A stretch of DNA of 64,000 bases. Source: Anaerovoracaceae bacterium. GTDB lineage: Bacteria > Bacillota > Clostridia > Peptostreptococcales > Anaerovoracaceae. The position numbers and the translations under genes are program-made. Location: NCBI GenBank assembly GCA_045545495.1, contig JAZQBC010000058.1:17246-81245 (forward strand), written 5' to 3'. The notes beneath the pieces are model-generated. The model did not search any database. It had not been told where the DNA came from and was given only the letters and a program-made list of their open reading frames with translations. Shown here piece by piece: positions 4,669 through 19,862 of this stretch (its first letter is position 1; each line of letters starts with the position of its first letter).

Positions 4669-4865
4669 TGAGCTGTCAAACGGATACCGCTACAACAGAC
4701 CGCGGAGTCTTCTTCTCGGAGGGCGGTTGTATATAGACAAAGATATTCGTCATATGTTATATATCCTGTTGACGAACCCGCTCGCCCAACCAAACGGGCT
4801 TGCCGGAGTCTTGCTCCCGGTTGAAAATGACCGATGAGCTTTCAGTGATATAGGTGTATGGAGAG

Positions 4866-5351
4866 ATGGAATATCATATTCGCGAGATCGAAGAGAGAGA
4901 TAATAAGAAGATCGAGCATGTCATACGTACATGCCTGATCGAATACGGAGCTGACCACGAGGGGACAGCCTGGGCTGATCCTCAGCTCGGAGAGTTTTCG
5001 ACTATCTATAATAATATCGAGGGTAGAAAATACTGGGTAGTAGAGACCACGGACAGCGAGATCGTAGGCGGGACCGGCATCGGCGAAGTGGAAGGCTGCC
5101 CGGGCGTCTGCGAACTGCAAAAGATGTACTGCCTTCCAAAGGCGCGCGGGACAGGTGCTGCACATGTTCTGATGGAGACTGCTTTGGCATATGCTAAACA
5201 GTACTACGATAAGTGCTACCTCGAAACATTTGATAACATGATCCCGGCACAGAAGTTCTACAAGAAGCACGGCTTCGAACTGACTGATCAGCGGCTCGGA
5301 GACACAGGTCACTTCGCCTGCGATGTACTATTCTTGAAGGAACTAAAATAG
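4866..5351 (+). CDS. GNAT-family N-acetyltransferase
   Basis: 'MEYHIREIEERD...' has an acetyl-CoA-binding style segment 'LQKMYCLPKARGTGAAHVLM'. An alternative GTG start exists at 4854. Confidence 0.8.
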   Translation: MEYHIREIEERDNKKIEHVIRTCLIEYGADHEGTAWADPQLGEFSTIYNNIEGRKYWVVETTDSEIVGGTGIGEVEGCPGVCELQKMYCLPKARGTGAAHVLMETALAYAKQYYDKCYLETFDNMIPAQKFYKKHGFELTDQRLGDTGHFACDVLFLKELK

Positions 5352-5453
5352 CATGATTTAGCTATTTAATTTTTAATTAAATGTTTTTATCGAACCAGAA
5401 ATTATGTTAAAATACAGGCGAAATCAAGCGTTGAGCATGATGCGAGGGATGGT

Positions 5454-6107
5454 ATGTCTATTAAGCAGAATCTCGATATTGCGATCGAAAAAAGCCTGTA
5501 TAACGAGATCATAGAAGGAAGATGGATCCCAAATGAGAGAATAAAGATCGAAAGGATCATGGATGAGTACAGCGTCAGCAGGACACCGGTGATCCAGGCT
5601 CTCAAGAAGATGCAGGAGAGAGGCCTTGTGGTATTTACAAACACGGGCCATTTTTATACCCCTTCATATTCCACAAAGGATCTTAAAGATATCAGAAATC
5701 TGCGTATAGTACTCGAGACACGGGCGCTGAGGGAGATCAAACAGAAGGATATAGACGTCGACTTTGGCCTCCTGTATGGGATATGTGAGAATGAGCAGAT
5801 CCACAGCAAGAATGGTGACAATATCCTTGCTAAAAGAGATGACATAGATTTTCACAAGGAGCTGGTCGATCAGGCAGGCAACAGCATTTTGTCAGACCTC
5901 CATAGAAGGATACAGGACAGGTTTATGATCGTGAACTATTCCTTCGCGGTCCATCCGCTGAAGAAGCACGAAGTGGCTTATAACGATCATACGAAGCTCC
6001 TGAGCTTGATAGGTGATGGCGATTTTGCGGGGGCTGAAGATCTGCTTGAACAGCATATTACCTGGGCGTATCAGAACGTCAAAATGTACATGAAAGACCA
6101 CATTTAA
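5454..6107 (+). CDS. GntR-family (FadR/FCD-type) transcriptional regulator
   Basis: N-terminal wHTH 'IMDEYSVSRTPVIQALKKMQERGLV' with an all-helical C-terminal domain. Confidence 0.9.
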   Translation: MSIKQNLDIAIEKSLYNEIIEGRWIPNERIKIERIMDEYSVSRTPVIQALKKMQERGLVVFTNTGHFYTPSYSTKDLKDIRNLRIVLETRALREIKQKDIDVDFGLLYGICENEQIHSKNGDNILAKRDDIDFHKELVDQAGNSILSDLHRRIQDRFMIVNYSFAVHPLKKHEVAYNDHTKLLSLIGDGDFAGAEDLLEQHITWAYQNVKMYMKDHI

Positions 6108-6262
6108 TTAAAAATTAAAAAAACGCGATTTTGCAAACAAAGGTTCGTTTCTTGTCGTTGACAAGGACGAGCCTTATTTATATTTTTGCATTAAAAATAG
6201 ACTGTTTGAGCGACTTAAAAAGGTCGTTGACAAACAGCGATCATCACGGCAGTGAGGGGATA

Positions 6263-7192
6263 ATGAATTCGAGAATCAGGGATCTGCTGGGAATGCTGAG
6301 CGTCATATGCTGCCAGAGTATATTCGGCTTCAGCTTCCTCTTCTCCAAGATAGGGACGAATATAAGTGATCCTTTTTCAGTCCTGGGTTGGAGGTTCACA
6401 GTAGCGTTCATAGCCATAGCGATATGCGCTGCGACTGGACTGATCAGGATCGACCTGAAGGGAAAAGATCTCAGGCCGCTGATAATGCTCTCGATATTTA
6501 CTCCTGTTGTCAACTACCTGCTGGAAACTATCGGAATAAGCATGACCACCTCGTCGGAAAGCGGAGCGATGGTCGCCTGCCTCCCGATAGCGTGCATGAT
6601 CTCAGCGTCGCTGATACTGAGAAAGATTCCTAACAAGACACAGGTGCTCGGGATCACAGTAACGGTTGCCGGGGTGCTGATATGCGTCTTCGCAAGAGGC
6701 TTTACAAAAGATCTGCACATGATGGGAAATATACTCATCATCATTTCGGTCTTTTCCAACAGTATTTTCACAGCGTTGTCAGAGAAAGCGAAAGAATTCT
6801 CGAGCGTAGAGAAGACGTTCATGATGCTGATTCTCGGATGTGCGACATTTATGACGCTAGCTGTGATAAGGAACGCGATCACCGGATCACTAACGGAATA
6901 CTTCACACTTCCGTTTGTGAACAAGATGTTCCTCGCCTCGGCCCTCTACCTCGGAATAGGTTGCTCGCTTGTGGCATTCTTCCTTAACAACACAGCGATA
7001 TCGATAATCGGAACAACGAGGACAGCATCTTTTGGAGGCATATCGACTATAGTTTCGATAATTGCCGGAGTAGTGATCATGAAAGAAGAGTTCCTGGCTA
7101 TTCAGGTAGCGGGAACGGTGCTGGTCCTGATAGGTGCATATACCGCCAACGCAAAGGCGATTATGAATAACAAAGAAACACGGAATCAATAA
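6263..7192 (+). CDS. DMT (EamA-like) family transporter
   Basis: About 10 TM segments in two EamA-like halves. Start moved to 'MNSRIRDLL', which has RBS 'gtgagggga'. Confidence 0.85.
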   Translation: MNSRIRDLLGMLSVICCQSIFGFSFLFSKIGTNISDPFSVLGWRFTVAFIAIAICAATGLIRIDLKGKDLRPLIMLSIFTPVVNYLLETIGISMTTSSESGAMVACLPIACMISASLILRKIPNKTQVLGITVTVAGVLICVFARGFTKDLHMMGNILIIISVFSNSIFTALSEKAKEFSSVEKTFMMLILGCATFMTLAVIRNAITGSLTEYFTLPFVNKMFLASALYLGIGCSLVAFFLNNTAISIIGTTRTASFGGISTIVSIIAGVVIMKEEFLAIQVAGTVLVLIGAYTANAKAIMNNKETRNQ

Positions 7193-7215
7193 AACCTGAA
7201 AGGAGTATTTAAAAC

Positions 7216-8127
7216 ATGGAAGTAAGAGATAATTGCAAGAAGCCTTTTGGCATCTGCCCTGCATCGATGACGCTTTGGGACTCCGATGAACAGTACAATC
7301 CAAAAGCAGAAGAGAAATACCTTACATGGCTCATTGACAATGGTGCTCAGTCGATTTCTATCTGCGGCAGCACAGGTGAAAACAAGGCTATGAACATGGA
7401 CGAGCAGATGCAGATCATCGACCATGTTACAAGCTTCCTCGGTGGACAGGTTCCGCTGATCGTAGGAACCGGTTTCTACAACACCATCAATACGATCAGA
7501 ATGAGCAAATATGCCGATGAGAAGGGCGCCGATGGAGTAATGGTCATCCTTCCATACTATTTCACACCGCATAAAAAGGCAGTGCTCAGACATTATCGCG
7601 ACATCAGAAAAGAGATCAGCTGTCGTCTGATGGTATACAACAATCCTCATTTCGCGGGTCAGGAACTTTCGGTTCCTGAGGTAGAAGAGCTGGTTGCTGA
7701 TGGAACTATCCAGGACATCAAGGCTGCTCACGGCGATCCTAACAGAGTCCACGAGCTCAAGTATCACCTCGGCGACAAGATCCAGATCATGTACGGACAT
7801 GATTACGCAGCAGCTGAAGGCCTCATGGCCGGAGCGCACGGATGGCTTTCAGGATTCCCTGCTATCCTGCCTAAACAGTGCAGAGCGATCTGGGATGCGT
7901 GCCAGACTAACGACATCAAGGCTACTATGGCGGCACAGGACAAGATCCAGCCTTATATCGATTACTTCTTCTATGACAAGAAGGACGGAGTTCCTCACTG
8001 GCAGGAAGTTTGCCACTACACACTCGTAGCGCAGGGCATTGAGGGCGGAGTTCCACGCAGACCTCTTGGTGACCTCGAGCCTGAGCACAAGAGAAAGATC
8101 GAGAGACTCCTCGCGGATATGGATTGA
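7216..8127 (+). CDS. DHDPS/N-acetylneuraminate-lyase family class I aldolase (paralogue 1)
   Basis: 'CGSTGENKAM', 'YNNP' and 'IQDIKAAHG' (Schiff-base Lys position). RBS 'aaaggag'. Confidence 0.85.
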   Translation: MEVRDNCKKPFGICPASMTLWDSDEQYNPKAEEKYLTWLIDNGAQSISICGSTGENKAMNMDEQMQIIDHVTSFLGGQVPLIVGTGFYNTINTIRMSKYADEKGADGVMVILPYYFTPHKKAVLRHYRDIRKEISCRLMVYNNPHFAGQELSVPEVEELVADGTIQDIKAAHGDPNRVHELKYHLGDKIQIMYGHDYAAAEGLMAGAHGWLSGFPAILPKQCRAIWDACQTNDIKATMAAQDKIQPYIDYFFYDKKDGVPHWQEVCHYTLVAQGIEGGVPRRPLGDLEPEHKRKIERLLADMD

Positions 8128-8133
8128 TAGATC

Positions 8134-9300
8134 ATGAAGGTATCTCAGTTAGCAAGTAAAATTCAAAAGGCCAAGATCCGCGTCATGTATGACATGGCGC
8201 GGGGAATGGACGATGTCATCAGCCTTACAGTGGGCGAGCCGGATTTCAAGACGCCGGCTTCGATAATCGAAGTATCGAATCGCTGCTTCAGTGAAGGCAT
8301 GACAGCATATACGCCTAACAACGGGCTATATGAGCTCAGGAAGGCTGTAGCGGATTATTACTCTCCGATCACGGGCTACGAAGTGGACCCCGAAAAGGAA
8401 GTGATGATCACGGTCGGCGCGCAGGAGGCCCTGGTGGTAGCCATGCAGATCCTGCTCGATCCGGGCGACGATGTGATGCTCTGCGAGCCATATTACGTTT
8501 CATATCTTGGACAGATACATGTCTGCGGATGCAATCCGGTCTTCATACCGACATCCGAAGAGAACAGGTGGGTACCGACTGTCGAGGACCTTGAAAGGAC
8601 TGTGACGGATCGCACGCGAGTCATGATAATCAACTCGCCAAACAATCCGACCGGTTGCGAGATAAGCCGCGAAGAGCTAGAGAAGATAGCTGAATTTGCG
8701 ATCAGGCATGACATCGTAGTGATATCCGACGAGCCATATAACAAGATCAGGTATTCCGAAACTCCTTTCGTCAGCATATCGTCTATGCCGGGGATGAAAG
8801 AGAGGACGCTGGTGGTGAATTCCTTCTCCAAGACTTACGCGATGCCGGGATGGAGACTCGGATACGCGGTAGGTCCTGAGTGGATCATCTCGCAGATGCC
8901 AAAGACGCATGATGTGACTGTATCGTGTGTGCCGGCTCCTTTCCAGCATGCCGGAGCGTTCGCGCTCAAGAACTGTGACAAGGACGTCGAAGAAATGGTG
9001 CGCCGCTTCAGGATACGAAGAGACCTTGTTGTCGAGGGGATCAACTCCATACCGGGACTGAGCTGCTCCGCGCCTGACGGAACATTCTACCTGTTCTTCA
9101 ATATCAAGGAGCTTGGAGTCAGTTCTGAAGAGTTCGCGTTTGGACTGCTGGAAGACAAGCACGTCGCGCTGGTTCCGGGCAATGGTTTTGGAGACCTGGG
9201 CGAGGGATATATGAGATTGACTTTTGCAAAAGAGGAAGAGGATCTTACGGAAGCGATATCCCGGATCAGGGAATACGTTGAGAAGATCAGAAACAAATAA
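8134..9300 (+). CDS. PLP-dependent aminotransferase, class I/II (AspC-like), copy 1
   Basis: 'INSPNNPTG' and 'SFSKTYAMPGWRLGY' (PLP lysine motif). Confidence 0.9.
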   Translation: MKVSQLASKIQKAKIRVMYDMARGMDDVISLTVGEPDFKTPASIIEVSNRCFSEGMTAYTPNNGLYELRKAVADYYSPITGYEVDPEKEVMITVGAQEALVVAMQILLDPGDDVMLCEPYYVSYLGQIHVCGCNPVFIPTSEENRWVPTVEDLERTVTDRTRVMIINSPNNPTGCEISREELEKIAEFAIRHDIVVISDEPYNKIRYSETPFVSISSMPGMKERTLVVNSFSKTYAMPGWRLGYAVGPEWIISQMPKTHDVTVSCVPAPFQHAGAFALKNCDKDVEEMVRRFRIRRDLVVEGINSIPGLSCSAPDGTFYLFFNIKELGVSSEEFAFGLLEDKHVALVPGNGFGDLGEGYMRLTFAKEEEDLTEAISRIREYVEKIRNK

Positions 9301-9318
9301 GTCGGGAGGGAACTGATA

Positions 9319-10239
9319 ATGAACAAATTCGTTGAAAAGTATGGGCAGATCCTTATTCCTATGATCACTCCTTATGACGAGAACGAGGAAGTGAATTATG
9401 AGGAATACGCTAAACTGGTAGATTATCTCATTACTGAGGACATGGGTGACTCTCTTATCGTCACCGGTACTACAGGAGAGGCGTGCCTGCTTACTTTTGA
9501 TGAAAGAGTCAAGCTGTTCGAGACTGCTGTAAAGGCAGCCGCGGGAAGAAAGCCTGTCATCGCCGGTACAGGCTGCGCATCAACTAAGGAAACTATAGAG
9601 CTTACAAATAAGGCATATGAGCTTGGTATCGAGACATGCCTGGTAGTATGTCCGTTCTACAACAAGCCGACACAGGAGGGTCTCTACCTTCACTATAAGA
9701 AGCTTGCCGAGAACACCAAGGCCAATATCATGCTTTACAACATTCCTATCTTTGTAGGAGTAAATATGGAGGCTGAAACGGTCAGAAGACTTGCGTCGAT
9801 CGAGAACATCATCGGCATCAAGGACGAGGCCGGAGTCAACCCTACACAGGTCACAGACTTCTTTATGGCAACTGCGGATATAGATCCGGACTTCGCGATC
9901 TTCAACGGAGATGATGTGATGCTCATGCCTACGATCGTTCAGGGAGCTATGGGACTTGTAAGCGGCGGCTCGCATATTTACGGACACGAAGTAAGAGAGA
10001 TCTTCAAGGCTTTCGCTGCGGGCGATAACGCCAGGGCAAAAGAGCTCTTCGATGAAATGTATGAATTCTGCAAGAGCACAGGCCAGAACGGAAGGATACT
10101 TCCAAACTCCATCCTCAGACCGGCGATCGAAGCTGTGACAGGCCTTAATCTCGGACCTGCCAGACTGCCGCTGGCTCCACCTACTGAAGAAGAGATGGAG
10201 GTCACACTGGGGATCCTGAAAAAACAGGGAAGGATCTAG
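9319..10239 (+). CDS. 4-hydroxy-tetrahydrodipicolinate synthase-like class I aldolase (DapA family, paralogue 2)
   Basis: 'TGTTGEACLL', 'LYNIP' and 'IGIKDEAG'. No dapB, asd or lysA nearby. Confidence 0.85.
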   Translation: MNKFVEKYGQILIPMITPYDENEEVNYEEYAKLVDYLITEDMGDSLIVTGTTGEACLLTFDERVKLFETAVKAAAGRKPVIAGTGCASTKETIELTNKAYELGIETCLVVCPFYNKPTQEGLYLHYKKLAENTKANIMLYNIPIFVGVNMEAETVRRLASIENIIGIKDEAGVNPTQVTDFFMATADIDPDFAIFNGDDVMLMPTIVQGAMGLVSGGSHIYGHEVREIFKAFAAGDNARAKELFDEMYEFCKSTGQNGRILPNSILRPAIEAVTGLNLGPARLPLAPPTEEEMEVTLGILKKQGRI

Positions 10240-10332
10240 TCTCGGGGAAATGCCCCCCCGGCCATTCAAGTTCATTACATCATTCACTAACGGATGATTA
10301 TGAAAAATATCTTAATTCAAGGAGGTAAACAC

Positions 10333-11166
10333 ATGAAGATTAAGAAAATCACAAGTTTGATTCTTATTGCTGCAATGATGTGCTTCGCATTCGCAAGTTG
10401 TGGCTCCGGATCTTCAAGCTCAGGTGGAGGCGATCTCCTCGCGTCTGTTCTTGAAAAGGGTGAGCTTCAGGTTGCTGTAGAAGCAGGAGATGAGCCATGG
10501 GCTTACCAGCCTGAGGGAGAATCCGAGTACACAGGAATGGCTGTTGAGATCATTCAGGGATTCGGTGAGGCCATTGGCGTAAACGTTGTTATCAACCCAT
10601 TCGAGTTCTCTGAGCAGATACCTGCTGTACAGTCGGGCAAGGTCGACATGATCGCCTGCAACATTTCCAGAACTCAGCAGAGATCTGCCACAGTACTGTT
10701 CACAGAGCCTGTATCCTACAACAATGGTGTAGCTGTTGTTAAGAAGGACAGCGGCTTCAAGAGCGTTACTGAGCTTGACTCCGGTGATATCACCCTGACA
10801 ACACCTGCCGGCTCCATCCAGGAAGAGCTTGCTAAGGAAAAATTCCCTAAGGCTAAGCTGAATGCTCTTGGTTCGACAAGTGACGCTATGGCAGCTCTCA
10901 AGGCTGGACGTGCTGATGCTTACATCACAGACAACATCCAGGGCGCTAAGATGCTCGAGTCTGACAGCAGCCTTGAAATGCTTCCAGAGGCACTGAACTC
11001 CGATACAGTTGCTTTCGCGCTGGCACTTGATACAAACTCCTACACACTCCGCGACGCGTTCAACAACTACCTCAAGGTAATCAAGATCGACGGAACGTAC
11101 AACGAGCTCTACAAGAAGTACTTCGGTACTGACTGGGTACCTCTGACAATCGAGTACGGTGCATAA
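10333..11166 (+). CDS. amino-acid ABC transporter substrate-binding lipoprotein
   Basis: Signal peptide with lipobox 'CFAFASCGSG'. Start at 'MKIKKITS' with RBS 'aaggagg'. Confidence 0.85.
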   Translation: MKIKKITSLILIAAMMCFAFASCGSGSSSSGGGDLLASVLEKGELQVAVEAGDEPWAYQPEGESEYTGMAVEIIQGFGEAIGVNVVINPFEFSEQIPAVQSGKVDMIACNISRTQQRSATVLFTEPVSYNNGVAVVKKDSGFKSVTELDSGDITLTTPAGSIQEELAKEKFPKAKLNALGSTSDAMAALKAGRADAYITDNIQGAKMLESDSSLEMLPEALNSDTVAFALALDTNSYTLRDAFNNYLKVIKIDGTYNELYKKYFGTDWVPLTIEYGA

Positions 11167-11282
11167 TTCATACATTTAGCTACTATTCTGGGTTAAATGA
11201 TTAATTAATAAGAGGCGTCATTTTCCCTATCCTTTAGAGAAAGTGGCGCCTCATGCGCTTTAGGACACACTAAGAGGTCATT

Positions 11283-11930
11283 ATGAATGCATTACAATTT
11301 GCAGGATGGCTGCCAGATCTTCTTGAAGGTCTCAAGATCACCATGGCAGCATCATTGATATCGATAGTAACCTCAACTGTTTTAGGAGCAGTTGTGGCGA
11401 TTTTCGTGGCATATGACAACAAGATAGTGACGGGCATCCTGAGAGTCTTTGTTTCCATATTCAGGAACACCCCACTGCTGGTCATAATGTTTTTCATATT
11501 TTATGGACTTCCGCTTATTAACGTTGTGTGGCCGCCTCTGGTCTGCGGAATACTGGCGATCACGCTTAATGAGAGCGCTTTTGTGGCGGAAATATTACGA
11601 GGTTCGATTTTGAATATACCGCAGGGAGATATAGAGGCCGCCGTAAGTCTGGGACTGAAAAAGTGGCAGGTCTCAAGCAAGATAATCTTCCCGCTTGCTA
11701 TGAGGAATTCGGTTCCGATGCTCGTCGGACAGTCCTCTGTAATAGTTAAGGATACATCGCTGTTCTCACTGATAATGATATTCGATCTTATGAGAGCGGG
11801 TCAGGCATACTACGACAAATATCTGAGCAGTGTATCGATCTGGATAGTAGGTGTGATATACGTGCTTATATTCCTTGCGCTTAGCTGGCTGGGAGCAAGA
11901 CTTGAGCAGAAAGCGTCGTTCAAGAGGTAG
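11283..11930 (+). CDS. amino-acid ABC transporter permease
   Basis: Multi-TM protein with EAA-type loop 'IEAAVSLGLKKWQVSSKIIFPLAMRNSVP'. Confidence 0.85.
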   Translation: MNALQFAGWLPDLLEGLKITMAASLISIVTSTVLGAVVAIFVAYDNKIVTGILRVFVSIFRNTPLLVIMFFIFYGLPLINVVWPPLVCGILAITLNESAFVAEILRGSILNIPQGDIEAAVSLGLKKWQVSSKIIFPLAMRNSVPMLVGQSSVIVKDTSLFSLIMIFDLMRAGQAYYDKYLSSVSIWIVGVIYVLIFLALSWLGARLEQKASFKR

Positions 11931-11939
11931 GGTGACACT

Positions 11940-12599
11940 ATGACTATATGGCAAATGATCAAATACATGCTTGCGGGCATTGGGATCACGTTTGAACTGG
12001 TGCCGCTCGCAATAGTGACTACATTCATCTTCGGAATGATACTCGGTATCCTTTCATTCAAGCGGATACCACTTATGAAGTATCTCCTGAAACTGTACAA
12101 CGTAGTCATGAGAGGACTGCCGACGATGGTCGTTCTCAAACTTATATACTATAACGCAAATTTCTCATCGGCTTTTATGGCGGCATTGATCTCGCTGACT
12201 CTGTACCACGGAGCATATATAGGCGAGATAATCAGAGGATGCTTCGAAACAGTTCCTGTTGGTCAGATGCAGGCAGGCTTGTCGCTCGGCCTCAGCTATT
12301 GGAAGATCATGTTCAAGATCTATATACCGCAGATACTGAAGCCGATGATCCCGATGGTCTGCAGCCAATACATCCTTCTCGTCAAGGATACTACGCTCGT
12401 CTATATCGTGGGCGTAATGGACATGATGTGGAGAGGCAGACAGATGATGGCTATGACATTCGATCCTATATCGGGATATCTGCTGATAGGCGTCTTCTAC
12501 TACATTCTCTGTACACTTATCGAGATCCTTGGCAGACGTGTTGAGAAGTCGATATCGATCAAACACAGAGGACGTATGCTCGGAACTTATTACCGTTGA
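11940..12599 (+). CDS. amino-acid ABC transporter permease
   Basis: Multi-TM protein with 'MQAGLSLGLSYWKIMFKIYIPQILKPMIP'. Confidence 0.85.
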   Translation: MTIWQMIKYMLAGIGITFELVPLAIVTTFIFGMILGILSFKRIPLMKYLLKLYNVVMRGLPTMVVLKLIYYNANFSSAFMAALISLTLYHGAYIGEIIRGCFETVPVGQMQAGLSLGLSYWKIMFKIYIPQILKPMIPMVCSQYILLVKDTTLVYIVGVMDMMWRGRQMMAMTFDPISGYLLIGVFYYILCTLIEILGRRVEKSISIKHRGRMLGTYYR

Positions 12600-12621
12600 T
12601 CAATCGGAAAGGATAGCAAAT

Positions 12622-13365
12622 ATGTCAGAAGATAGGCAAGTACTGGTGCAGTTCAAAGATGTTTGCAAAACATTCAATGAAGGCAAAACAGTTGTAATGG
12701 ATCACTTCAGCTTCGACTTTCTTAAGGGCGAGACGCATGTAATTTGCGGCAGAAGCGGCGCGGGCAAAAGTACGCTCATCCGCTGTATCAACTACCTTGA
12801 GCAGATCGACAGCGGTGAGATCAATATGGATGGGATAGTTCTGGATAAAAAGACGGCTATCGATATACGAAAGAGAGTCGCTATGGTATTCCAGAATTTC
12901 AACCTTTTCCCTAATATGACGGCACTCCAGAATGTGAGCTTTGGGCCTATAGAATCACTCCATGTGCCAAAGGCTGAAGCGATCGAGGGCGCGGAAAAAT
13001 ATCTCGAGAAGGTTGGTCTCAAGGACAAAATGAACTCCAAACCGGGAGAGCTTTCCGGCGGTCAGCAGCAGAGAGTGGCGATCGCCCGCGCTCTCAATAT
13101 GAATCCGGAGCTTATCCTGTTTGATGAGCCTACGAGCGCTCTCGACCCTGAGATGGTAGGCGAGGTCATCGATATCATGGAGGAGCTCTCGGCAGAACAC
13201 AGGAGCATGATAGTCGTTACTCATGAGATGGGTTTTGCTAAAGCAGCCGCGGACAGGATCTCCTTCCTTGAAGGAGGGCGGTTCCTCGAGACCAATACAC
13301 CGATCGAATTTTTCGAGCATCCGAAAAACGAGAGTCTGGCCAAGTTCATAAGTCAGATCCAGTAA
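12622..13365 (+). CDS. amino-acid ABC transporter ATP-binding protein
   Basis: 'GRSGAGKST', 'LSGGQQQR', '[11 protein letters not shown]'. Start at 'MSEDRQVLV'; the ORF-track start at 12529 overlaps the permease. Confidence 0.9.
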   Translation: MSEDRQVLVQFKDVCKTFNEGKTVVMDHFSFDFLKGETHVICGRSGAGKSTLIRCINYLEQIDSGEINMDGIVLDKKTAIDIRKRVAMVFQNFNLFPNMTALQNVSFGPIESLHVPKAEAIEGAEKYLEKVGLKDKMNSKPGELSGGQQQRVAIARALNMNPELILFDEPTSALDPEMVGEVIDIMEELSAEHRSMIVVTHEMGFAKAAADRISFLEGGRFLETNTPIEFFEHPKNESLAKFISQIQ

Positions 13366-13383
13366 AAGAGGAGGCTTTTGAAG

Positions 13384-14340
13384 ATGAAGAGACCAAAGAT
13401 ACTTGTAGTGGGCAGCTTTATGATGGACATGACGGTTTCGGCGCCAAGAGTACCTGATCTTGGAGAGACCGTTACAGGGACGAAGTTCTCGACGGCACCC
13501 GGAGGGAAAGGCTTCAATCAGGCAGTTCAGTGCGCGAGGCTCGGAGCGGATGTCACTATGGTAGGCTGCCTCGGTAATGACACTAACGGAGAGGAATTTA
13601 TCCGTGTAGCCAAGGACATAGGTCTTGACATAGAGCATGTCAAGATCAGCGATACAGAGCATACCGGAGTTGCAAGCATACAGCTTGAGGTCAAGGATGA
13701 TTCCGTCCAAAACAGGATCATCATAGTGCCGGGCTCCAATTACGCTCTGACCCCTGAAGATCTGGGCTGGCTGGAGGGCGCGATCTCGGATTACGATATC
13801 GTGATGCTGCAGCTTGAGATCTCGATGGAGACGAACAAATATGTTGCGGAAGTAGCTGACAAGGCTGGCGTTAAAGTCATGCTCAATCCGGCACCGGCTG
13901 CGGAACTGGATAGCGATTTCCTCAGCAACGTTACATATCTGTCGCCGAATGAGTTTGAGGCTGCTCTACTTTCAGGTCACAAGATCAAAGTTGACGAAAA
14001 TGGAGCAGATGAGGACGACGCTCAGGAAGCGGCGAGAAAACTGATGGAGCTCGGCGCGGCCAAGGTCATAATAACCCTCGGTGAAAACGGATCTCTCCTA
14101 TGTGATCCGGATAGGTGCGTACGCGTCCCAAGTATTCTGGCTGACAATGTTGCGGATCCGACCGCTGCAGGAGATTCCTTTGTCGCGGCGTTCTGCACAG
14201 CGCAGGCCATGGGCATGACAGAGGAAGAGGCGCTTGAATACGCAAGCTATACCGCTTGCCTTACTGTACAGAGCCTCGGCGCTATGCCGTCGCTTCCGGA
14301 CAAAGAACGAGTCGATGCTTTCATTGGAAGCAAGAAATAG
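13384..14340 (+). CDS. PfkB-family sugar kinase (ribokinase-like)
   Basis: 'APGGKGFNQAV' and 'DPTAAGDSFVAAF' (ribokinase signatures). RBS 'agaggagg'. Confidence 0.85.
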   Translation: MKRPKILVVGSFMMDMTVSAPRVPDLGETVTGTKFSTAPGGKGFNQAVQCARLGADVTMVGCLGNDTNGEEFIRVAKDIGLDIEHVKISDTEHTGVASIQLEVKDDSVQNRIIIVPGSNYALTPEDLGWLEGAISDYDIVMLQLEISMETNKYVAEVADKAGVKVMLNPAPAAELDSDFLSNVTYLSPNEFEAALLSGHKIKVDENGADEDDAQEAARKLMELGAAKVIITLGENGSLLCDPDRCVRVPSILADNVADPTAAGDSFVAAFCTAQAMGMTEEEALEYASYTACLTVQSLGAMPSLPDKERVDAFIGSKK

Positions 14341-14429
14341 AAAGAACTGATCAGTGCTTCCGCGTGAGGTAGAAATACCAGAAAGAACAGTCAAGCGCTT
14401 CCGTGGGAAGCGAAAAGAGTGGTAGACAA

Positions 14430-15047
14430 ATGGTTAAAGAACAGAGTAAACAGGCAGTCCGTGATTTTATAGAATCAGCCCGCAGGGAGTTCGACTCTCA
14501 GACTTTGAAGTTCGATTATTCCCAGATAGAAAATGCCGCTCAGTTGATCCTTGATACTCAGGCCAACGGCGGGAGGGTACATATCACCGGAATAGGCAAG
14601 CCGGGGCATGTTTCTTCATATATAGCCTCACTTATGTCTTCAACCGGGAATCCTTGTTATTTCCTTGATGGCACCGAAGCGTATCACGGATCCAGCGGTC
14701 AATTGATCGAAGGGGATGTCGTGATCGCCATTTCCAATTCAGGTGAGACTAACGAGCTCAAGACTACGGTCACTACTGTTAAGGGCCTGGGCTGCAAGCT
14801 GATAGGAGTCTCCGGCAACGCTGACAGCTGGCTTGCGCTCAACTCGGATGCTTTCCTTCTCGCTCATGTCGATGCTGAAGGAGGGCCGCTCAACAGGGCA
14901 CCGCGCAATTCTGTTATCGCGGAGATGCTGGTGCTCCAGGCTCTAAGCGTGTTGCTTCAGGAGGAAAAAGGCCTGGATCCTGTGGAATATGTAAGGCATC
15001 ATCCGGGCGGTAAGTTGGGCCAACTCAGAGATGATGAGAAGCGGTAG
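14430..15047 (+). CDS. SIS-domain sugar-phosphate isomerase (KpsF/GutQ-like, no CBS pair)
   Basis: 'ITGIGKPGHVSSYIASLMSSTG', 'HGSSGQ' and 'AISNSGETNEL'. An alternative GTG start exists at 14403. Confidence 0.8.
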   Translation: MVKEQSKQAVRDFIESARREFDSQTLKFDYSQIENAAQLILDTQANGGRVHITGIGKPGHVSSYIASLMSSTGNPCYFLDGTEAYHGSSGQLIEGDVVIAISNSGETNELKTTVTTVKGLGCKLIGVSGNADSWLALNSDAFLLAHVDAEGGPLNRAPRNSVIAEMLVLQALSVLLQEEKGLDPVEYVRHHPGGKLGQLRDDEKR

Positions 15048-15078
15048 GTATTCCACTTTTAATGTGATGGTGCGAAGG

Positions 15079-16017
15079 ATGAAAGACAAGATTCGTGTCG
15101 GTGTACTGGGTACAGGATATGTAGCGATCAATAATTATCTGCCGATCCTCTCGGGGATGGACGATGTTGAGATCGCGGCGATACTCTCGGGCCATATAGA
15201 GAATGCTCAGAAGGCGGCCAAAAGATTTGGTGCGGCGAAAGCGGTAAGCACGATAGCGGAGCTGGTGGATGAGGGTATTGATTGTGCCTTTGTCCTGACT
15301 CCTAAGGGCTTCCACTTTGAGCATGTGAACTTTCTTTTGAATAAAGGCATCCCGACATATTGTGAGAAACCTCTGGCCACCGACCTTGGCGACTGCAGAG
15401 AGCTAGCGAGGATGAGTGAGGCGACTAAGACTATACTCATGGTTGGTTTCAATAGGCGTTTTGCTCCCATCGTGCAGGCAGCAAAAGAAGTGTGGGGCGA
15501 TACAAAGCCTGATGTCATCATCGCTCAGAAAAACCGGCCTGAGACTGAATACCACGCGACCCTCGAAAATGCCGTTCACATGGTGGATATACTGAGATTC
15601 TTCGGGGGAGAGGCCCGCGAGGTGCACGCTCTGGCAAAATACAGTGACCCGGATTACGAGACATTCACGACTGCAATGATAGAGTTTGAATGTGGTTCTT
15701 CTGGGATGCTTATTGCCGACAGGAGCGCCGGGCAGTGGGAAGAGACCATAGAGATGCACGGAGGCAACAAAACGGTAATAGTCAATATGCCGGAAAGCCT
15801 GACTGTGATCGATAAAGACAAGAAAACAACGGTCGAAATAACACCTCTTAATATGGGGTGGGCGAAGTCGGAAGAGAGAATGGGCTTCAGCAATGCTACC
15901 TCTTATTTCATAGATTGTGTCAGAAATGGCACGAGGCCTGAGCCAGATGCTGCGGACGCCGTACTTACACATGAACTGCTCGACAGGATCCTTGAGGATG
16001 CTGGGCTGCCGCGATAG
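15079..16017 (+). CDS. Gfo/Idh/MocA-family oxidoreductase
   Basis: 'IRVGVLGTGYVAINNYLP' Rossmann N-terminus and 'CEKPLA' motif. The start is ambiguous (15067 or 15079). Confidence 0.8.
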   Translation: MKDKIRVGVLGTGYVAINNYLPILSGMDDVEIAAILSGHIENAQKAAKRFGAAKAVSTIAELVDEGIDCAFVLTPKGFHFEHVNFLLNKGIPTYCEKPLATDLGDCRELARMSEATKTILMVGFNRRFAPIVQAAKEVWGDTKPDVIIAQKNRPETEYHATLENAVHMVDILRFFGGEAREVHALAKYSDPDYETFTTAMIEFECGSSGMLIADRSAGQWEETIEMHGGNKTVIVNMPESLTVIDKDKKTTVEITPLNMGWAKSEERMGFSNATSYFIDCVRNGTRPEPDAADAVLTHELLDRILEDAGLPR

Positions 16018-16044
16018 ACGATATTCGCGTTACAGATGTGGTGT

Positions 16045-16117
16045 AAACAGATAGCCGCGCGAAAGAGGTGCGATACAAATAGATATTTGAATGAAAGCGA
16101 CGCGAAACAGATAGCCG
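16045..16117 (+). repeat. 23-bp perfect direct repeat, two copies 50 bp apart
   Basis: 'aaacagatagccgcgcgaaagag' occurs at 16045-16067 and at 16095-16117. The second copy ends 15 nt before the ATG at 16133. Confidence 0.9.
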
Positions 16118-16132
16118 CGCGAAAGAGAACCG

Positions 16133-17290
16133 ATGGATTTGATTAATAAAAAAACAAAAGACATGGAGCAGGGCGCCATCCGGGAAATGTTCGACCGCGC
16201 GTCAGCGATGGAAGACGTTATAAGCCTCGGAATCGGCGAGCCGGACATCCATACAGATGCTTCGATCTGTGAGGCTGCGTATGTAGCCATGCAGGAAGGG
16301 TATACACACTATACGCCTAATGCGGGGATCATCCAGCTGCGGACGGCGATCGCGAACGAGACGTACCTGAAAGGTGCTCACTACGATCCCGGTTCAGAGG
16401 TGATCGTCACATGCGGCGGCGCAGGAGCTATATCCACACTGATGGCAGTCATCATAGATCCGGGTGATGAGGTGCTTATCCAGGACCCACAATGGTTCAA
16501 TTACGTATCGCAGGTCGAGTACTATGGTGGAAAGGCAATCAGGGTACCTGCCTATGCCGAAAACGGCTTCGAACTCGATGCCGAGACTATTTCGAAATAC
16601 GTAACAGATAGGACGAAGGCGCTGATGATCAACTCCCCAAACAATCCAACAGGGCGGGTGATTTCATATGAGACCGCGCGTGCGATATCTCGCTTAGCGG
16701 TGGAACGCGACTTTATGGTCATCAGCGATGATGTATATAACAGCCTTTTGTACACGGGTGAAGATCCGTTTTGCATAGCGGAGATGCCCGGCATGAAAGA
16801 GCGGACAGTTATAATAGGCAGCTTTTCTAAATCGTACGCTATGACAGGCTGGAGGATCGGCTATGCGGCGGGTCCTGCTGAGGTCATAGACAGGATGACG
16901 AAATGCCAGGAAATATTCACTGCTTGCGCCAGTTCAATGGGGCAATGGGCGGCATCTTACGCCTTGAAGAATCCTCAGATCGCAAAGAAGATCAAGGACA
17001 CTTTCGATAGGCGGCGCAGGCTGATCATGAGCGAGCTTTCACAGATCGACGGACTGAGGTTCGCGGAGCCGCAAGGCGCGTTCTACGTGTTCGCTGACAT
17101 AAGCGCTTTTGGCCTTAGCGATACTGAGTTTTGCAACAAACTGCTCGATGAGGAACATGTTGTATGTATTCCGGGAAGCCCGTTTGGTGAGCAGGGCAGA
17201 GGATACATACGAATCGCGTATACGATAGAAGAAGAAAAGTTAGTTGAGGCTGTCGGCAGGCTAAAAGCTTTCTGTGACAGATTGCGATAG
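16133..17290 (+). CDS. PLP-dependent aminotransferase, class I/II (AspC-like), copy 2
   Basis: 'INSPNNPTG' and 'SFSKSYAMTGWRIGY'. Confidence 0.9.
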   Translation: MDLINKKTKDMEQGAIREMFDRASAMEDVISLGIGEPDIHTDASICEAAYVAMQEGYTHYTPNAGIIQLRTAIANETYLKGAHYDPGSEVIVTCGGAGAISTLMAVIIDPGDEVLIQDPQWFNYVSQVEYYGGKAIRVPAYAENGFELDAETISKYVTDRTKALMINSPNNPTGRVISYETARAISRLAVERDFMVISDDVYNSLLYTGEDPFCIAEMPGMKERTVIIGSFSKSYAMTGWRIGYAAGPAEVIDRMTKCQEIFTACASSMGQWAASYALKNPQIAKKIKDTFDRRRRLIMSELSQIDGLRFAEPQGAFYVFADISAFGLSDTEFCNKLLDEEHVVCIPGSPFGEQGRGYIRIAYTIEEEKLVEAVGRLKAFCDRLR

Positions 17291-17422
17291 CGATAAAGAT
17301 AAAGATTTGCTTCGGCGCCAGTTGTGGCAGACCGAAATATGACAAGCCATAGAATAATCTGTCTCGACGTTGGAAGCACAAATCATAATACATATGATCG
17401 ATTATTAGGAGGGTACAGAATC

Positions 17423-17860
17423 ATGTTAAAAGGCGTTCCTAAAATTATCTCACCTGAGCTACTCAAGGTGCTTTGCGAGATGGGTCATGGAGACCGCATC
17501 GTGCTTGCTGATGGAAATTTCCCTTGCGAATCGATGGGGAAGAACGCGGTAGTGATCAGAGCTGACTCTATCGGCGTTTCTGAACTTTTGAAGGCGATCC
17601 TGCAGCTCTTCCCGTTGGATGCCAGCATAGAAAAGCCGGTGACACTTATGGAAGTCTCCGCCGGTGATGACGTTGAAACACCAATATGGGATGAGTTCAA
17701 GGAGATCGTAGCCGCTAACGATGAGCGGGGTGCGGACGCGTTCAGGGAGATCGGCAGATTCGACTTCTACGACGAGACACGAAGTTCATACTGCATCGTG
17801 GCTACCGGAGAGGAAGCTCTTTACGCGAACGTGATGCTGCAAAAGGGCGTAGTTAAGTAA
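17423..17860 (+). CDS. RbsD/FucU-family sugar mutarotase/pyranase
   Basis: 'MLKGVPKIISPELLKVLCEMGHGDRIVLADGNFP' is the typical N-terminus of this family. RBS 'aggaggg'. Confidence 0.8.
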   Translation: MLKGVPKIISPELLKVLCEMGHGDRIVLADGNFPCESMGKNAVVIRADSIGVSELLKAILQLFPLDASIEKPVTLMEVSAGDDVETPIWDEFKEIVAANDERGADAFREIGRFDFYDETRSSYCIVATGEEALYANVMLQKGVVK

Positions 17861-18009
17861 TTAAGCATATTATCTACTTCGATATCGATATCCGTTAAGT
17901 GGCAATTACCAGATATAGATATATTATTTTACGGTACGACAAGACAACAAATCACTTAATAGCGATATAACCGCACAATTATTTCATTTCTTCATGAATA
18001 CCTCTAAAT

Positions 18010-18059
18010 AACTGCCCGGGGAAATGGTGTTCGAGACATTTCTCCGGGCAGTTGTTTTG
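18010..18059. terminator. long hairpin terminator between convergent genes
   Basis: 17-bp stem 'aactgcccggggaaatg' and 'catttctccgggcagtt' with one mismatch, followed by 'gttttg'. Confidence 0.7.
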
Positions 18060-18095
18060 CCTGGATTTACTGGTCTTTATAGCCTCGCCAGATGA

Positions 18096-19861: not shown

Positions 19862-19862
19862 G

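Follow-up and report, generated by a model that had tools for sequence, protein, structure and literature searches.

A fourteen-gene operon of a rumen Clostridia bacterium that may convert a sugar-like amino acid to pentose phosphate

Gene content and organization

The window (the whole 64,000-nucleotide stretch of DNA analysed) carries at 5454-17860 a run of 14 intact open reading frames, all on the + strand (Table 1). A sequence-only reading had described them as co-directional and tightly spaced, and they are: the intergenic gaps, computed with gene starts from gene callers on identical metagenome contigs, run from 6 to 132 nt. In the mechanical ORF list, the EamA, SBP, ATPase, SIS, Gfo/Idh/MocA and FucU frames begin 5' of their probable true starts. 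Domains were assigned with Pfam and NCBIfam profiles, which give exactly the domains that reading had named. No terminator-like sites were found on the + strand between the genes of 5454-17860, nor any Rfam elements within it, and the identical gene order is present on at least eight contigs from different rumen samples; the 14 genes form a real operon in a Mogibacterium-like rumen Clostridia bacterium.

Table 1. Genes of the operon in 5' to 3' order, with the distance from each to the next
Product	Position	Strand	Family or motif	Gap to next gene (nt)
GntR/FCD transcriptional regulator	5454..6107	+	Pfam GntR + FCD	44
EamA/DMT membrane transporter	6152..7192	+	Pfam EamA, two repeats	23
ALD1, class I pyruvate-dependent lyase, distinct DHDPS/NAL subfamily	7216..8127	+	PF00701	6
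AT1, class I (AspC-type) alpha-amino-acid aminotransferase, ALD1 partner	8134..9300	+	PF00155 (Aminotran_1_2)	18
ALD2, DapA-like class I lyase	9319..10239	+	DHDPS family	93
Lipoprotein SBP, polar-amino-acid-type ABC importer	10333..11166	+	SBP_bac_3, lipobox ...CFAFASCGS	116
ABC permease 1	11283-11930	+	BPD_transp_1 / HEQRo_perm_3TM	9
ABC permease 2	11940-12599	+	BPD_transp_1 / HEQRo_perm_3TM	22
ABC ATPase	12622-13365	+	ABC_tran; best model GlnQ	18
Ribokinase-like PfkB kinase, clade A	13384..14340	+	PfkB; ribokinase model TIGR02152	89
Single-domain SIS protein	14430..15047	+	best family KpsF/GutQ	31
Gfo/Idh/MocA NAD(P) oxidoreductase	15079..16017	+	Pfam	115
AT2, second class I aminotransferase	16133..17290	+	PF00155 (Aminotran_1_2)	132
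RbsD/FucU-family mutarotase or pyranase for free sugar	17423..17860	+	PF05025 (RbsD_FucU)	

Regulator and transporters

The GntR/FCD protein is likely a local repressor that senses a carboxylate effector. Distant EamA genes also come after compact ALD1 operons (see below) in loci L095 and L015. Aligned to AncCDT-1, the SBP has kept the Arg and Asp responsible for binding alpha-carboxylate and alpha-ammonium groups, and its PDB matches include SocA, a deoxyfructosyl-amino-acid SBP (5l9o, E = 6e-12). Its identity to the SBP encoded next to ALD2 in locus L036 is 59%, against 39-43% for the SBPs from ALD1 operons; the two permeases are 68% and 72%, and the ATPase 74%, identical to their L036 counterparts.

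Two DHDPS-like aldolases

ALD1 scores 153.7 bits with the dapA model, under the cut-off of 206. Tyr141, the Schiff-base Lys169 and the GSTGE motif do not vary, and it has the motif YNNPxFxG without Arg138; it is predicted to be a 4-hydroxy-2-oxo-acid aldolase. Homologues with 58-82% identity are found in Clostridia, Synergistaceae and Alphaproteobacteria, where they adjoin importers, 2-position dehydrogenases or aminotransferases, and kinases.

ALD2 is only about 25% identical to ALD1. It keeps the catalytic Lys and Tyr and a GTTGE motif, its score with the NCBIfam dapA model TIGR00674 is 236 bits (cut-off 206), and a member of its 90% cluster is named 4-hydroxy-tetrahydrodipicolinate synthase by NCBI, all of which would suit a cellular DapA in a locus for lysine/diaminopimelate biosynthesis. 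Such a role is nevertheless extremely improbable. Arg138 of DapA binds the carboxylate of aspartate semialdehyde, and the B. anthracis DapA sequence YNVPGRS reads YNIPIFVG in ALD2 and all of its 77-82% orthologues, Arg138 being replaced by Phe throughout; ALD2 should therefore not be a DapA in spite of its above-cut-off score. In addition, dapB, asd and lysA were not found in the locus, and ALD2 orthologues are housed in importer and kinase operons, beside an ABC importer of the same type (L036) or beside kinase-SIS genes (L140, L143, L172). Lysine biosynthesis had already been disfavoured from the sequence, and the lack of Arg138 in both aldolases further bears this out. ALD2, too, is a predicted 4-hydroxy-2-oxo-acid aldolase.

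Aminotransferases and oxidoreductase

AT1, whose best PDB matches are 1gd9/1dju, has the complete set of alpha-amino-acid aminotransferase residues (the PLP Lys, Asn, Asp/Tyr and the alpha-carboxylate Arg), and its orthologues (56-64%) adjoin ALD1 in L093, L095, L015, L068, L036, L038, L039 and L077. Homologues of AT2 (59-60%) lie directly 3' of a KdgK-like kinase gene, with an Eda aldolase or LivK-type ABC importer nearby. The aminotransferases are about 40% identical to one another, and this low value, like that of the two aldolases, indicates that neither pair is a recent duplication. The suggestion that "duplicated" pairs serve two stereoisomers is unlikely, as the pairs stem from different modules; where other loci deal with stereochemistry, a racemase does so. 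Homologues of the Gfo/Idh/MocA protein (58-62%) are encoded directly 3' of a third type of DHDPS-like gene. Two of these clusters (L097/L098) also carry a clade-A kinase, 53% identical to that of the window; the kinase in a further one (L099) is only 30% identical to it.

The kinase, SIS and FucU genes

The kinase scores 299.2 bits with TIGR02152 (cut-off 299.65) and aligns over its full length with solved ribokinases; Asn14 is changed to Met, and Asp16, Lys43, Glu143 and Asp255 are kept. We predict that this clade-A kinase is a D-arabinose (aldopentose) 5-kinase. The SIS protein (best PDB matches 5uqi, 2xhz and 3etn) has the complete catalytic set of an arabinose-5-phosphate isomerase (API), five residues equivalent to Lys59, His88, Glu111, Glu152 and His193 of KdsD, and a Pfam/NCBIfam domain search found no CBS pair in it; it is a predicted API. 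The best family for the FucU-type protein is L-fucose mutarotase (121 bits, under the cut-off of 141).

We surveyed 39 metagenomic loci with an orthologue of the SIS gene, counting kinases within 6 kb. A clade-A kinase gene is near the SIS orthologue in 35; the remaining four have a PTS EIIC and a DHDPS-like gene without the kinase. FucU genes are near in 15, in several directly after kinase-SIS, and GH172/DUF2961 genes are present in eight. GH172 enzymes are exo-alpha-D-arabinofuranosidases (PMC10115798, PMC10509167). The conservation of kinase-SIS, the API residues and the GH172 neighbours together argue that this module would read D-arabinose to A5P to Ru5P, a strong prediction from sequence and neighbourhood. 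DHDPS-like genes occur in 11/39 loci, by our estimate much more often than chance would give for a family of a few copies per genome. The other 28 have no aldolase gene nearby and carry sugar importers or GH172 genes instead, so that the pentose module is able to function by itself.

A mosaic of recurring modules

Only one rumen species has the full array. It is a mosaic, and the modules that make it up, at least three in number, are met again in other gut bacteria: ALD1 + AT1, accompanied by a GntR/FCD regulator, a ribokinase-like kinase and an importer for acids or amino acids; ALD2 + polar-amino-acid ABC importer; and kinase + single-domain SIS + FucU. Among 68 de-replicated ALD1 loci, class I aminotransferases (15/68) and ribokinase-like PfkB kinases (22/68) are enriched beside the ALD1-family genes, and GntR/FCD genes are near 29. 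Importers in these loci are mutually exclusive (polar-amino-acid ABC, LivK ABC, CUT1 sugar ABC, TctABC or TRAP), and the alternative 2-position enzymes are Ldh_2, LarA-like, D-2-hydroxyacid dehydrogenase, and FAD dehydrogenase + ETF. A compact operon, GntR-ALD1-SBP-permease-permease-ATPase-AT-kinase, is shared by Hornefia butyriciproducens and three further lineages; its clade-B kinase has only about 31% identity to that of the window and may act on a different substrate.

Aldolase and/or aminotransferase genes share one co-directional operon with kinase-SIS-FucU genes in no fewer than four independent arrangements: the window; L156-158 (LacI, polar-amino-acid ABC, Alr-type racemase, aminotransferase, DHDPS-like, kinase, SIS, FucU); L077 (racemase, kinase, aminotransferase, ALD1, SIS, FucU); and L140 (LivK ABC, Ldh_2, LarA-like, ALD2, kinase, SIS); L121 and L124 are further examples. 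The LarA-like/Ldh_2 pair of L140 stands where L156 and L077 have a racemase and aminotransferase.

Proposed pathway and alternatives

We suggest that the operon, under GntR/FCD control, serves to break down an alpha-amino acid resembling a sugar, namely a 2-amino-4-hydroxy (3-deoxy) polyol acid, with its 2-hydroxy analogue possibly also a substrate. The polar-amino-acid-type ABC importer would bring the compound in, as suggested by the alpha-amino-acid head-group residues kept in the SBP. AT1 and/or AT2 would then yield a 4-hydroxy-2-oxo (2-keto-3-deoxy) acid, a step to which the conserved aminotransferase-aldolase adjacency and the intact aminotransferase residues point, and the class I Schiff-base lyase ALD1 and/or ALD2 would split this into pyruvate and an aldose. 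The aldose, most likely D-arabinose, would be anomerised by the FucU-type protein, phosphorylated at O5 by the ribokinase-like kinase and isomerised from A5P to Ru5P by the SIS protein, feeding the pentose-phosphate pathway. The Gfo/Idh/MocA protein probably adds a redox step (entry of the 2-hydroxy analogue or sugar tailoring), and the operon would have been assembled in this lineage from pre-existing ALD1-AT1, ALD2-ABC importer and kinase-SIS-FucU modules.

This scheme of transamination, aldol cleavage and pentose phosphorylation is the best model, held tentatively and with a little less than even confidence. In outline it had been proposed from the sequence, and it is favoured by the neighbourhoods, the L156-158 and L077 composites and the AT1, SBP and SIS residues; the neighbourhood-conservation check proposed with it favours the core route but does not find the 14 genes co-conserved as a unit. 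That confinement to one species counts against the model, as do the many kinase-SIS loci without a nearby aldolase, the different kinase of the compact ALD1 operons, and the association of the closest AT2 homologues with KdgK/Eda and not with DHDPS-type lyases. We know of no natural 2-amino-2,3-dideoxy-octonic (Kdo-like) amino acid, and literature searches found none, which also counts against it.

Alternatively, the modules could be merely adjacent, with no common intermediate: ALD1-AT1 and ALD2-importer would degrade ordinary gamma-hydroxy amino acids, such as 4-hydroxyglutamate-like compounds, to pyruvate and a small aldehyde, and kinase-SIS-FucU would salvage free D-arabinose. We consider this unlikely, though a serious competitor. 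Each module is seen alone elsewhere, and the array as a whole is species-specific; ALD1 has many partner sets without SIS, most kinase-SIS loci have no DHDPS-like gene, and EamA could import sugar. However, the repeated co-directional joining of aldolase or aminotransferase genes to the pentose module, the estimated excess of DHDPS-like genes in SIS loci and the 18 nt between ATPase and kinase genes in the window all speak for linkage. The importers do so as well: they are of the polar-amino-acid ABC type in the window and L156 and of the LivK type in L140, and, EamA set aside, no sugar-type ABC or MFS importer is present in any of the three, so the pentose must arise intracellularly.

Another possibility is that the imported compound is already a 2-keto-3-deoxy sugar acid, for example Kdo from lipopolysaccharide or pectin, cleaved to pyruvate and D-arabinose; the aminotransferases would act downstream on pyruvate, as would the racemase, Ldh_2 and LarA-like enzymes of other loci, converting it to and from alanine or lactate. 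An aminotransferase with an Alr-type racemase is indeed a known pair for pyruvate and D/L-alanine interconversion, as Ldh_2 with LarA-like is for D/L-lactate, and an acid importer, ALD1 and a kinase suffice in many loci (L016, L018 and the alphaproteobacterial ones). We nonetheless judge it improbable: dedicated pyruvate-to-alanine enzymes are of no obvious use in a catabolic operon, the alpha-ammonium-binding Asp is kept in the SBP, and where AT and ALD1 adjoin, the importer is of the amino-acid or CUT1 type and not a TRAP or Tct acid importer. The LarA-like match is also weak (29 bits), and such scores are typical of non-lactate members.

Comparison with frl-type systems

The sequence-only reading had noted a resemblance to the frl loci for Amadori compounds. 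A frl/fra-like system would import an N-(1-deoxy-pentulosyl) amino acid, which the PfkB protein would phosphorylate and the SIS protein deglycate to pentose phosphate and a free amino acid, the latter being degraded by the aminotransferases. GntR, PfkB, SIS and an amino-acid-type SBP do co-occur here, SocA is among the matches of that SBP, and the API and deglycase reactions have enediol chemistry in common. Yet the analogy fails on each feature tested, and we regard this origin of the pentose phosphate as very improbable. The frl deglycase (FrlB/FraB) has two SIS domains, whereas the window protein consists of one KpsF-type domain in which no API catalytic residue is missing; the window kinase reaches 80.9 bits against the 247-bit FrlD cut-off; and the frl regulator carries a UTRA domain, that of the window an FCD domain. 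Such a system would moreover leave two DHDPS-type lyases and a mutarotase without a role, and elsewhere the kinase-SIS pair adjoins GH172 glycosidases, which release free sugar.

Gene content and integrity of the locus

The locus (see table) comprises the 14 genes listed by the sequence-only reading, all of them intact and on the + strand, and every domain that reading had assigned was borne out by Pfam and NCBIfam. The intergenic gaps are 6-132 nt (taking the starts that gene callers assigned on metagenome contigs of identical sequence), and no + strand terminator-like site was found between the 14 genes, although promoter and terminator scans gave counts not above those of shuffled sequence and are hence uninformative. 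An Rfam search of 4000-21000 found no riboswitch or T-box hinting at a ligand and no Rfam element within the locus. GC3 is even across all 14 genes (0.51-0.63), and this uniformity gives no compositional sign of recent horizontal acquisition. The 14-gene array is present on at least eight rumen metagenome contigs and in the rumen MAG RUG13623, and the 90% clusters of the putative aldolase ALD2 and the aminotransferase AT1 have members assigned by NCBI to Mogibacterium sp.

Features of the locus and its flanks, in map order
Feature	Position	Strand	Handle or remark
Second polar-amino-acid ABC set with DDAH-type gene	7-2905	+	upstream flank
Permease of that set	581-1303	+
ATPase of that set	1290-2012	+
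DDAH/arginine-deiminase-fold protein	2135-2905	+
Whole locus	5454-17860	+	14 genes
1. GntR+FCD regulator		+
2. EamA transporter		+
3. DHDPS-family protein	7216-8127	+	ALD1
4. Class I/II aminotransferase	8134-9300	+	AT1
5. DHDPS-family protein	9319-10239	+	ALD2
6. SBP_bac_3 binding protein with lipobox	10333-11166	+	SBP
7. HEQRo permease		+
8. HEQRo permease		+
9. GlnQ-like ATPase		+
10. Ribokinase-like PfkB kinase	13384-14340	+	window kinase
11. Single SIS, KpsF/GutQ type, without CBS	14430-15047	+	SIS protein
12. Gfo/Idh/MocA oxidoreductase		+
13. Aminotransferase	16133-17290	+	AT2
14. RbsD/FucU protein	17423-17860	+	FucU
ORF, 291 aa, no Pfam match	18096-18971	-	downstream flank
Terminator-like hairpin	19842-19861	-
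tRNA gene	19866-19938	-	62.9 bits
Alanine-racemase-family gene	20237-21406	+	2.4 kb downstream of locus

Upstream, the second ABC set and its DDAH-fold gene look like a separate guanidino-amino-acid module, and the set is also kept upstream of the locus on metagenome contigs. Downstream, the locus is bounded by the opposite-strand 291-aa ORF, and the region from the locus to the racemase gene, otherwise poor in ORFs, holds the tRNA gene with the hairpin immediately after it.

A mosaic of recurring sub-blocks

Species-representative genomes were searched with an alignment of ALD1 homologues, and all 14 window proteins were scored against the 79 loci returned (comparison loci carry L numbers, and percentages are identities to the window protein). 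The idea that the 14 genes are conserved as a unit did not survive this comparison, as none of the 79 loci outside the source species has the whole set. The array is a mosaic of sub-blocks that recur elsewhere. One is a compact ALD1 operon with the order GntR/FCD, ALD1, SBP_bac_3, permease, permease, ATPase, AT1-like, and then a PfkB protein of ∼300 aa, which occurs in Hornefia butyriciproducens (ALD1 82%, aminotransferase 64%) and three other lineages; another joins a LivK-type ABC importer to AT1-like and ALD1 genes (L036, L038, and L039). L036 also has an ALD2 module consisting of ALD2 (77%), an aminotransferase, SBP (59%), permeases (68% and 72%), and ATPase (74%), and because of these identities the ABC importer of the window belongs with ALD2 and not with ALD1.

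When all neighbors of ALD1 were clustered in 68 loci, the families counted included GntR/FCD regulators (29/68), ribokinase-like PfkB proteins (22/68), LivK-type ABC sets (16-22/68), class I aminotransferases (15/68), and TctA (13/68). Alternative enzymes that act at C2 of carboxylic acids also lie near ALD1, namely Ldh_2, a LarA-like racemase/epimerase, a D-2-hydroxyacid dehydrogenase, an FAD dehydrogenase with ETF, and a ∼1000-aa FAD/Fe-S dehydrogenase. Read most simply, ALD1 would split a 4-hydroxy-2-oxo "hub" acid and release a fragment that needs a kinase; the cell would take up this acid as such, or an aminotransferase or a dehydrogenase would produce it from its 2-amino or 2-hydroxy form, respectively. 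For every PfkB protein beside ALD1 the top match is ribokinase-like, and KdgK models match only weakly and in part, so that a KDG kinase acting with a KD(P)G aldolase is not supported. These kinases fall into two clades, A (the window, L077, L017, L021, and L097) and B (the compact operons), and for clade B the rejection is not complete.

ALD1 and ALD2 as predicted pyruvate lyases

Both proteins belong to the DHDPS/NAL superfamily (PF00701, E = 3e-51 for ALD1 and 2e-73 for ALD2). The ALD1 family shows no variation at the Schiff-base Lys169, at Tyr141, or in GSTGE, and ALD2 contains IKDEAG, YN, and GTTGE. Both are far under the NanA cut-offs and score low against Arch_KDGaldase. With the dapA equivalog model TIGR00674 (cut-off 206.15), ALD1 is below at 153.7 bits and ALD2 above at 236.4, and a member of the ALD2 90% cluster is publicly annotated as [quoted passage not shown]. 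In DapA, Arg138 (E. coli numbering) binds the carboxylate of L-aspartate semialdehyde. This arginine is missing from ALD2, which has "YNIPIFVG" where Bacillus anthracis DapA has "YNVPGRS", and Phe takes its place both there and in every one of the 77-82% orthologs of ALD2; in this region ALD1 has "YNNPHFAG" (invariant in its family as "YNNPxFxG"). Thus, in spite of its score, ALD2 lacks a defining feature of DapA. The sequence-only reading argued against lysine synthesis from the lack of dapB, asd, and lysA, none of which was found within the locus or its immediate flanks, and the missing Arg138 strengthens that argument. Lysine/DAP biosynthesis was rejected on these two grounds, and it is extremely unlikely that ALD2 is a DapA serving it. 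The absent arginine suggests instead that the dapA model over-calls the ALD2 subfamily, and it flags a systematic misannotation in which automated pipelines name ALD2-type proteins DapA.

A proposed pentose module

The SIS protein is 205 aa long and consists of a SIS domain alone, lacking the CBS pair of canonical arabinose-5-phosphate isomerases (APIs). This architecture matches that of the characterized single-domain APIs 5uqi and 3etn, which are E. coli CFT073 c3406 and the Bacteroides fragilis enzyme, respectively; these are also its closest solved structures, together with the SIS domain of KdsD (2xhz). Lys59, His88, Glu111, Glu152, and His193 (KdsD numbering), the API catalytic residues, are all identical in comparison with 2xhz (a K59A mutant) and 5uqi. 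A RuMP formaldehyde route, in which the SIS protein would be a 6-phospho-3-hexuloisomerase, was rejected, as HxlB scores 35 bits against 122 for KpsF and no hexulose-phosphate synthase accompanies it. The window kinase reaches 299.2 bits with the ribokinase equivalog model (cut-off 299.65) and aligns full-length with solved ribokinases. It retains Asp16, Lys43, Glu143, and Asp255, and Asn14 is replaced by Met ("GSFMMD" vs. "GSxNxD"); these five positions are the ribose-contact residues of ribokinase.

Metagenomes were scanned with an alignment of two SIS sequences, which gave 80 loci (52-74% identity), and counts were limited to the 39 in which the SIS gene is flanked on both sides by at least 3 kb. 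A clade-A kinase lies within 6 kb of the SIS gene in 35 of these 39, mostly directly upstream, and FucU is near it in 15, several of which have the order kinase, SIS, FucU. The four loci without a kinase all have a PTS EIIC (GAT type) and a DHDPS-like gene. This kinase-or-PTS pattern is expected if a C5 fragment needs a 5-phosphate, which a PTS would supply on uptake and a kinase otherwise. DUF2961 (GH172), a family that includes exo-alpha-D-arabinofuranosidases shown by experiment (PMC10115798, PMC10509167), occurs in eight of the 39 loci. On this combined evidence, the module reads as one in which free D-arabinose would be brought to the right ring form or anomer by FucU, phosphorylated to arabinose-5-phosphate (A5P) by the kinase, and isomerized to Ru5P by the SIS protein. 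Its presence beside GH172 suggests an alternative D-arabinose route, which may matter for gut turnover of mycobacterial-type D-arabinans and Kdo.

A conserved, kinase-free arrangement of PTS EIIA, EIIC (GAT type), API-like SIS, and DHDPS-like ("YNIPKNTG") genes was seen in L160, L165, L175, L177, L181, and L182, some of which also have an Eda aldolase. It is possibly a PTS-dependent 2-keto-3-deoxy sugar-acid route that gives A5P directly.

Aminotransferases, importer, and oxidoreductase

AT1 displays SKTYAMPGWRLGY, NSPNNPTG, SDEPY, and GYMRLTF in alignment with 1gd9/1dju. It aligns with the Pyrococcus horikoshii aromatic/aspartate aminotransferase and retains the PLP lysine, the Asn, the Asp/Tyr, and the alpha-carboxylate Arg, and it should therefore be an alpha-amino-acid aminotransferase. 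AT2 has a full-length PF00155 match, its class I assignment being by family match alone. AT2 homologs (59-60%, L100-L103) consistently come right after a KdgK-like kinase, accompanied either by AsnC, a PTE-family lactonase, and Eda aldolase or by a LivK-type ABC importer, a context that suggests a related pathway of the amino-acid-to-KDG type. Homologs of the Gfo/Idh/MocA protein (58-62%) directly follow a third DHDPS-like gene type, and the L097/L098 cluster includes a clade-A kinase (53%). These contexts tie both families to 2-keto-3-deoxy sugar-acid cleavage without thereby fixing their roles in the window.

The Lachnospiraceae clusters L097-L099 have the conserved order LacI, DHDPS-like, Gfo/Idh/MocA, AP_endonuc_2, Gfo/Idh/MocA, PfkB, AP_endonuc_2. 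A Zn-ADH and a DASS transporter follow the cluster in L097/L098, and a Zn-ADH and TRAP components lie adjacent upstream of it in L099. All three have the window's oxidoreductase family, and only L097/L098 have its kinase family; the clusters look like an inositol-like or sugar-acid pathway.

The importer has the features of a polar-amino-acid system (SBP_bac_3, two HEQRo permeases, a GlnQ-like ATPase, and a lipobox). In alignment to AncCDT-1, the SBP conserves the Arg and Asp with which polar-amino-acid binding proteins bind the alpha-carboxylate and alpha-ammonium. This conservation speaks against the possibility that the keto-acid itself is imported and that the aminotransferases work on pyruvate. 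Relatives of ALD1 (58-70%) in Clostridia and Alphaproteobacteria have in fact no companions beyond a regulator, a ribokinase-like kinase, and a TctABC or TRAP acid importer; for the window, with its amino-acid-type importer, such direct uptake is improbable.

Possible linkage of the two halves and a proposed pathway

DHDPS-like genes are present in 11 of the 39 SIS loci, by our estimate far above expectation for a family with few copies per genome, and ALD2 orthologs (77-82%) adjoin kinase-SIS pairs in L140, L143, and L172. The human gut loci L156-158 have a single co-directional operon of LacI, SBP_bac_3, permease, permease, ATPase, alanine-racemase-family, aminotransferase (41% to AT1), DHDPS-like (31% to ALD2), kinase (49%), SIS (56%), and FucU genes. 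L077 (Oscillospiraceae) has CUT1 permeases, a class V aminotransferase, an Alr-type racemase, a DHDPS-like gene, kinase (47%), AT1-like (57%), ALD1-like (49%), a D-2-hydroxyacid dehydrogenase, an Fe-ADH, SIS (55%), and FucU, and L140 has LivKHMGF, Ldh_2, LarA-like, ALD2, kinase, and SIS. L140 is the same scheme with 2-hydroxy enzymes replacing the racemase and aminotransferase. Kinase-SIS loci that lack an aldolase have sugar ABC or MFS importers or GH172 genes. The ABC importers of the window and L156 are of the polar-amino-acid type and that of L140 is LivK; as none is a sugar importer, the pentose must be made intracellularly from the imported compound. Against such a link, 28 of the 39 kinase-SIS loci have no aldolase, many ALD1 contexts have no SIS gene, and the full array is species-specific. 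That the window holds independent modules which are merely adjacent is accordingly a serious alternative, though on balance we think it rather unlikely.

Alr-family racemases directly adjoin aminotransferase and DHDPS-like genes in L156, L074 (where the racemase gene is beside AT and ALD1), and L077. The window's downstream racemase is 42% identical to that of L156; it may be part of the system, or it may be a housekeeping alr.

The pathway favored here has four steps. The ABC system would import a sugar-like alpha-amino acid, transamination would convert it to a 2-keto-3-deoxy acid, ALD1 and/or ALD2 would split this to pyruvate and D-arabinose (or a close aldopentose), and FucU, the kinase, and the SIS protein would turn the sugar into Ru5P. 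What sequence and gene neighborhoods give directly are the domains, the residue patterns, and the neighbor counts, and from these we infer every catalytic step and the substrate's identity; as a whole, the model is held tentatively, at somewhat less than an even chance. Stoichiometric logic points to an alpha-amino analog of Kdo as the substrate. To our knowledge no such natural analog has been described, and this is the main weakness of the model. A decarboxylative route from 2-amino-2-deoxy-aldonates (glucosaminate-type) to D-arabinose was set aside, since a Schiff-base lyase is unable to decarboxylate its own alpha-keto acid and there is no ThDP enzyme.

A broader and rather speculative extension, which we consider unlikely to hold in full, is that gut and rumen anaerobes degrade unrecognized natural "sugar amino acids". 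The substrates would be 2-amino-2,3-dideoxy-aldonic acids and their 2-hydroxy analogs in either C2 configuration, taken through racemase and aminotransferase (or LarA-like protein and Ldh_2), a Kdo-type class I aldolase, a D-arabinose 5-kinase, and a catabolic API. If true, it would make the ALD1/ALD2 families and clade-A kinase the genes for the orphan Kdo-type aldolase and D-arabinokinase, and it would account for API genes in Gram-positive bacteria.

Comparison with known systems

The sequence-only reading likened the locus to the frl Amadori-compound loci, and the frl/fra systems do have in common with it a GntR-family regulator, a PfkB kinase, a SIS protein, and an amino-acid-conjugate importer. 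The likeness does not extend further. The SIS protein has a single SIS domain with KpsF as its top family and is not a two-SIS FrlB/FraB deglycase; the kinase scores 80.9 bits with the FrlD-type model NF007321 (cut-off 247), ribokinase being its best model; the regulator is of the FCD type; and the two pyruvate lyases and the mutarotase have no counterpart in frl/fra. The locus is thus excluded from frl/fra membership by its lack of such a deglycase and kinase, and a pentulosamine or Amadori system more generally is very unlikely.

The nan sialic-acid pathway (NanA lyase, NanK kinase, NanE epimerase, and FCD-type NanR) shares the logic of the locus. There too, with a GntR/FCD regulator in control, a DHDPS/NAL class I lyase splits an ulosonic acid into pyruvate and a free sugar, which is phosphorylated and then isomerized or epimerized so as to enter central metabolism, and NanR is the top NCBIfam match of the FCD domain here. 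The locus differs in its amino-acid-type importer, the aminotransferases ahead of the lyase, a ribokinase-like rather than ROK kinase, and an API-like SIS isomerase, which implies that the sugar is a pentose and not ManNAc.

Biochemistry of the 1960s described Kdo aldolase (EC 4.1.2.23), D-arabinokinase (EC 2.7.1.54), and arabinose-5-phosphate isomerase (EC 5.3.1.13). That classical scheme, in which 2-keto-3-deoxy-octonate gives pyruvate and D-arabinose, then A5P and Ru5P, is the chemistry predicted for the locus after the keto-acid; the locus would add amino-acid-type uptake and transamination. We know of no firmly assigned genes for the aldolase and D-arabinokinase. Unlike the 5uqi and 3etn enzymes, the SIS protein comes from a Gram-positive-type Clostridia host without obvious need for Kdo synthesis, and since its gene is in an operon with a kinase and a mutarotase, the catabolic direction, A5P to Ru5P, is implied.

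YagE/YjhH, which are 2-keto-3-deoxy-pentonate aldolases, and the L-2-keto-3-deoxyfuconate aldolase and archaeal KD(P)G aldolase routes likewise apply a class I DHDPS-family lyase to a 2-keto-3-deoxy sugar acid. In these nonphosphorylative routes, FucU mutarotase and a sugar dehydrogenase are frequent companions (the dehydrogenase counterpart here being Gfo/Idh/MocA), but the locus has neither lactonase nor aldonate dehydratase, and its keto-acid would come from transamination or 2-hydroxy oxidation rather than dehydration. GH172/GH183 D-arabinan loci yield free D-arabinose, the predicted sugar of the kinase-SIS module, whereas the window has no glycoside hydrolase; for the published loci a fucose-isomerase-type isomerase and a kinase were proposed, not a 5-kinase and an API (PMC10115798, PMC10509167).

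The literature searched for the gene combination, Kdo aldolase genes, Kdo catabolism, glucosaminate routes, and Gram-positive APIs describes no such pathway and nowhere reports amino-acid-type uptake, transamination, a DHDPS-type lyase, and a 5-kinase/API pentose branch in combination. If the four-step model is true, the locus would define a new way for a nutrient resembling an amino acid to enter the pentose-phosphate pathway, in relatives of Mogibacterium and Hornefia that are regarded as asaccharolytic amino-acid fermenters. It would also provide gene candidates for a 3-deoxy-octulosonate-type aldolase and D-arabinokinase, and a catabolic role for single-domain APIs in bacteria that make no lipopolysaccharide. 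In kind, by analogy with nan and the classical Kdo biochemistry, the locus would appear to be an instance of pyruvate-lyase-based sugar-acid catabolism.
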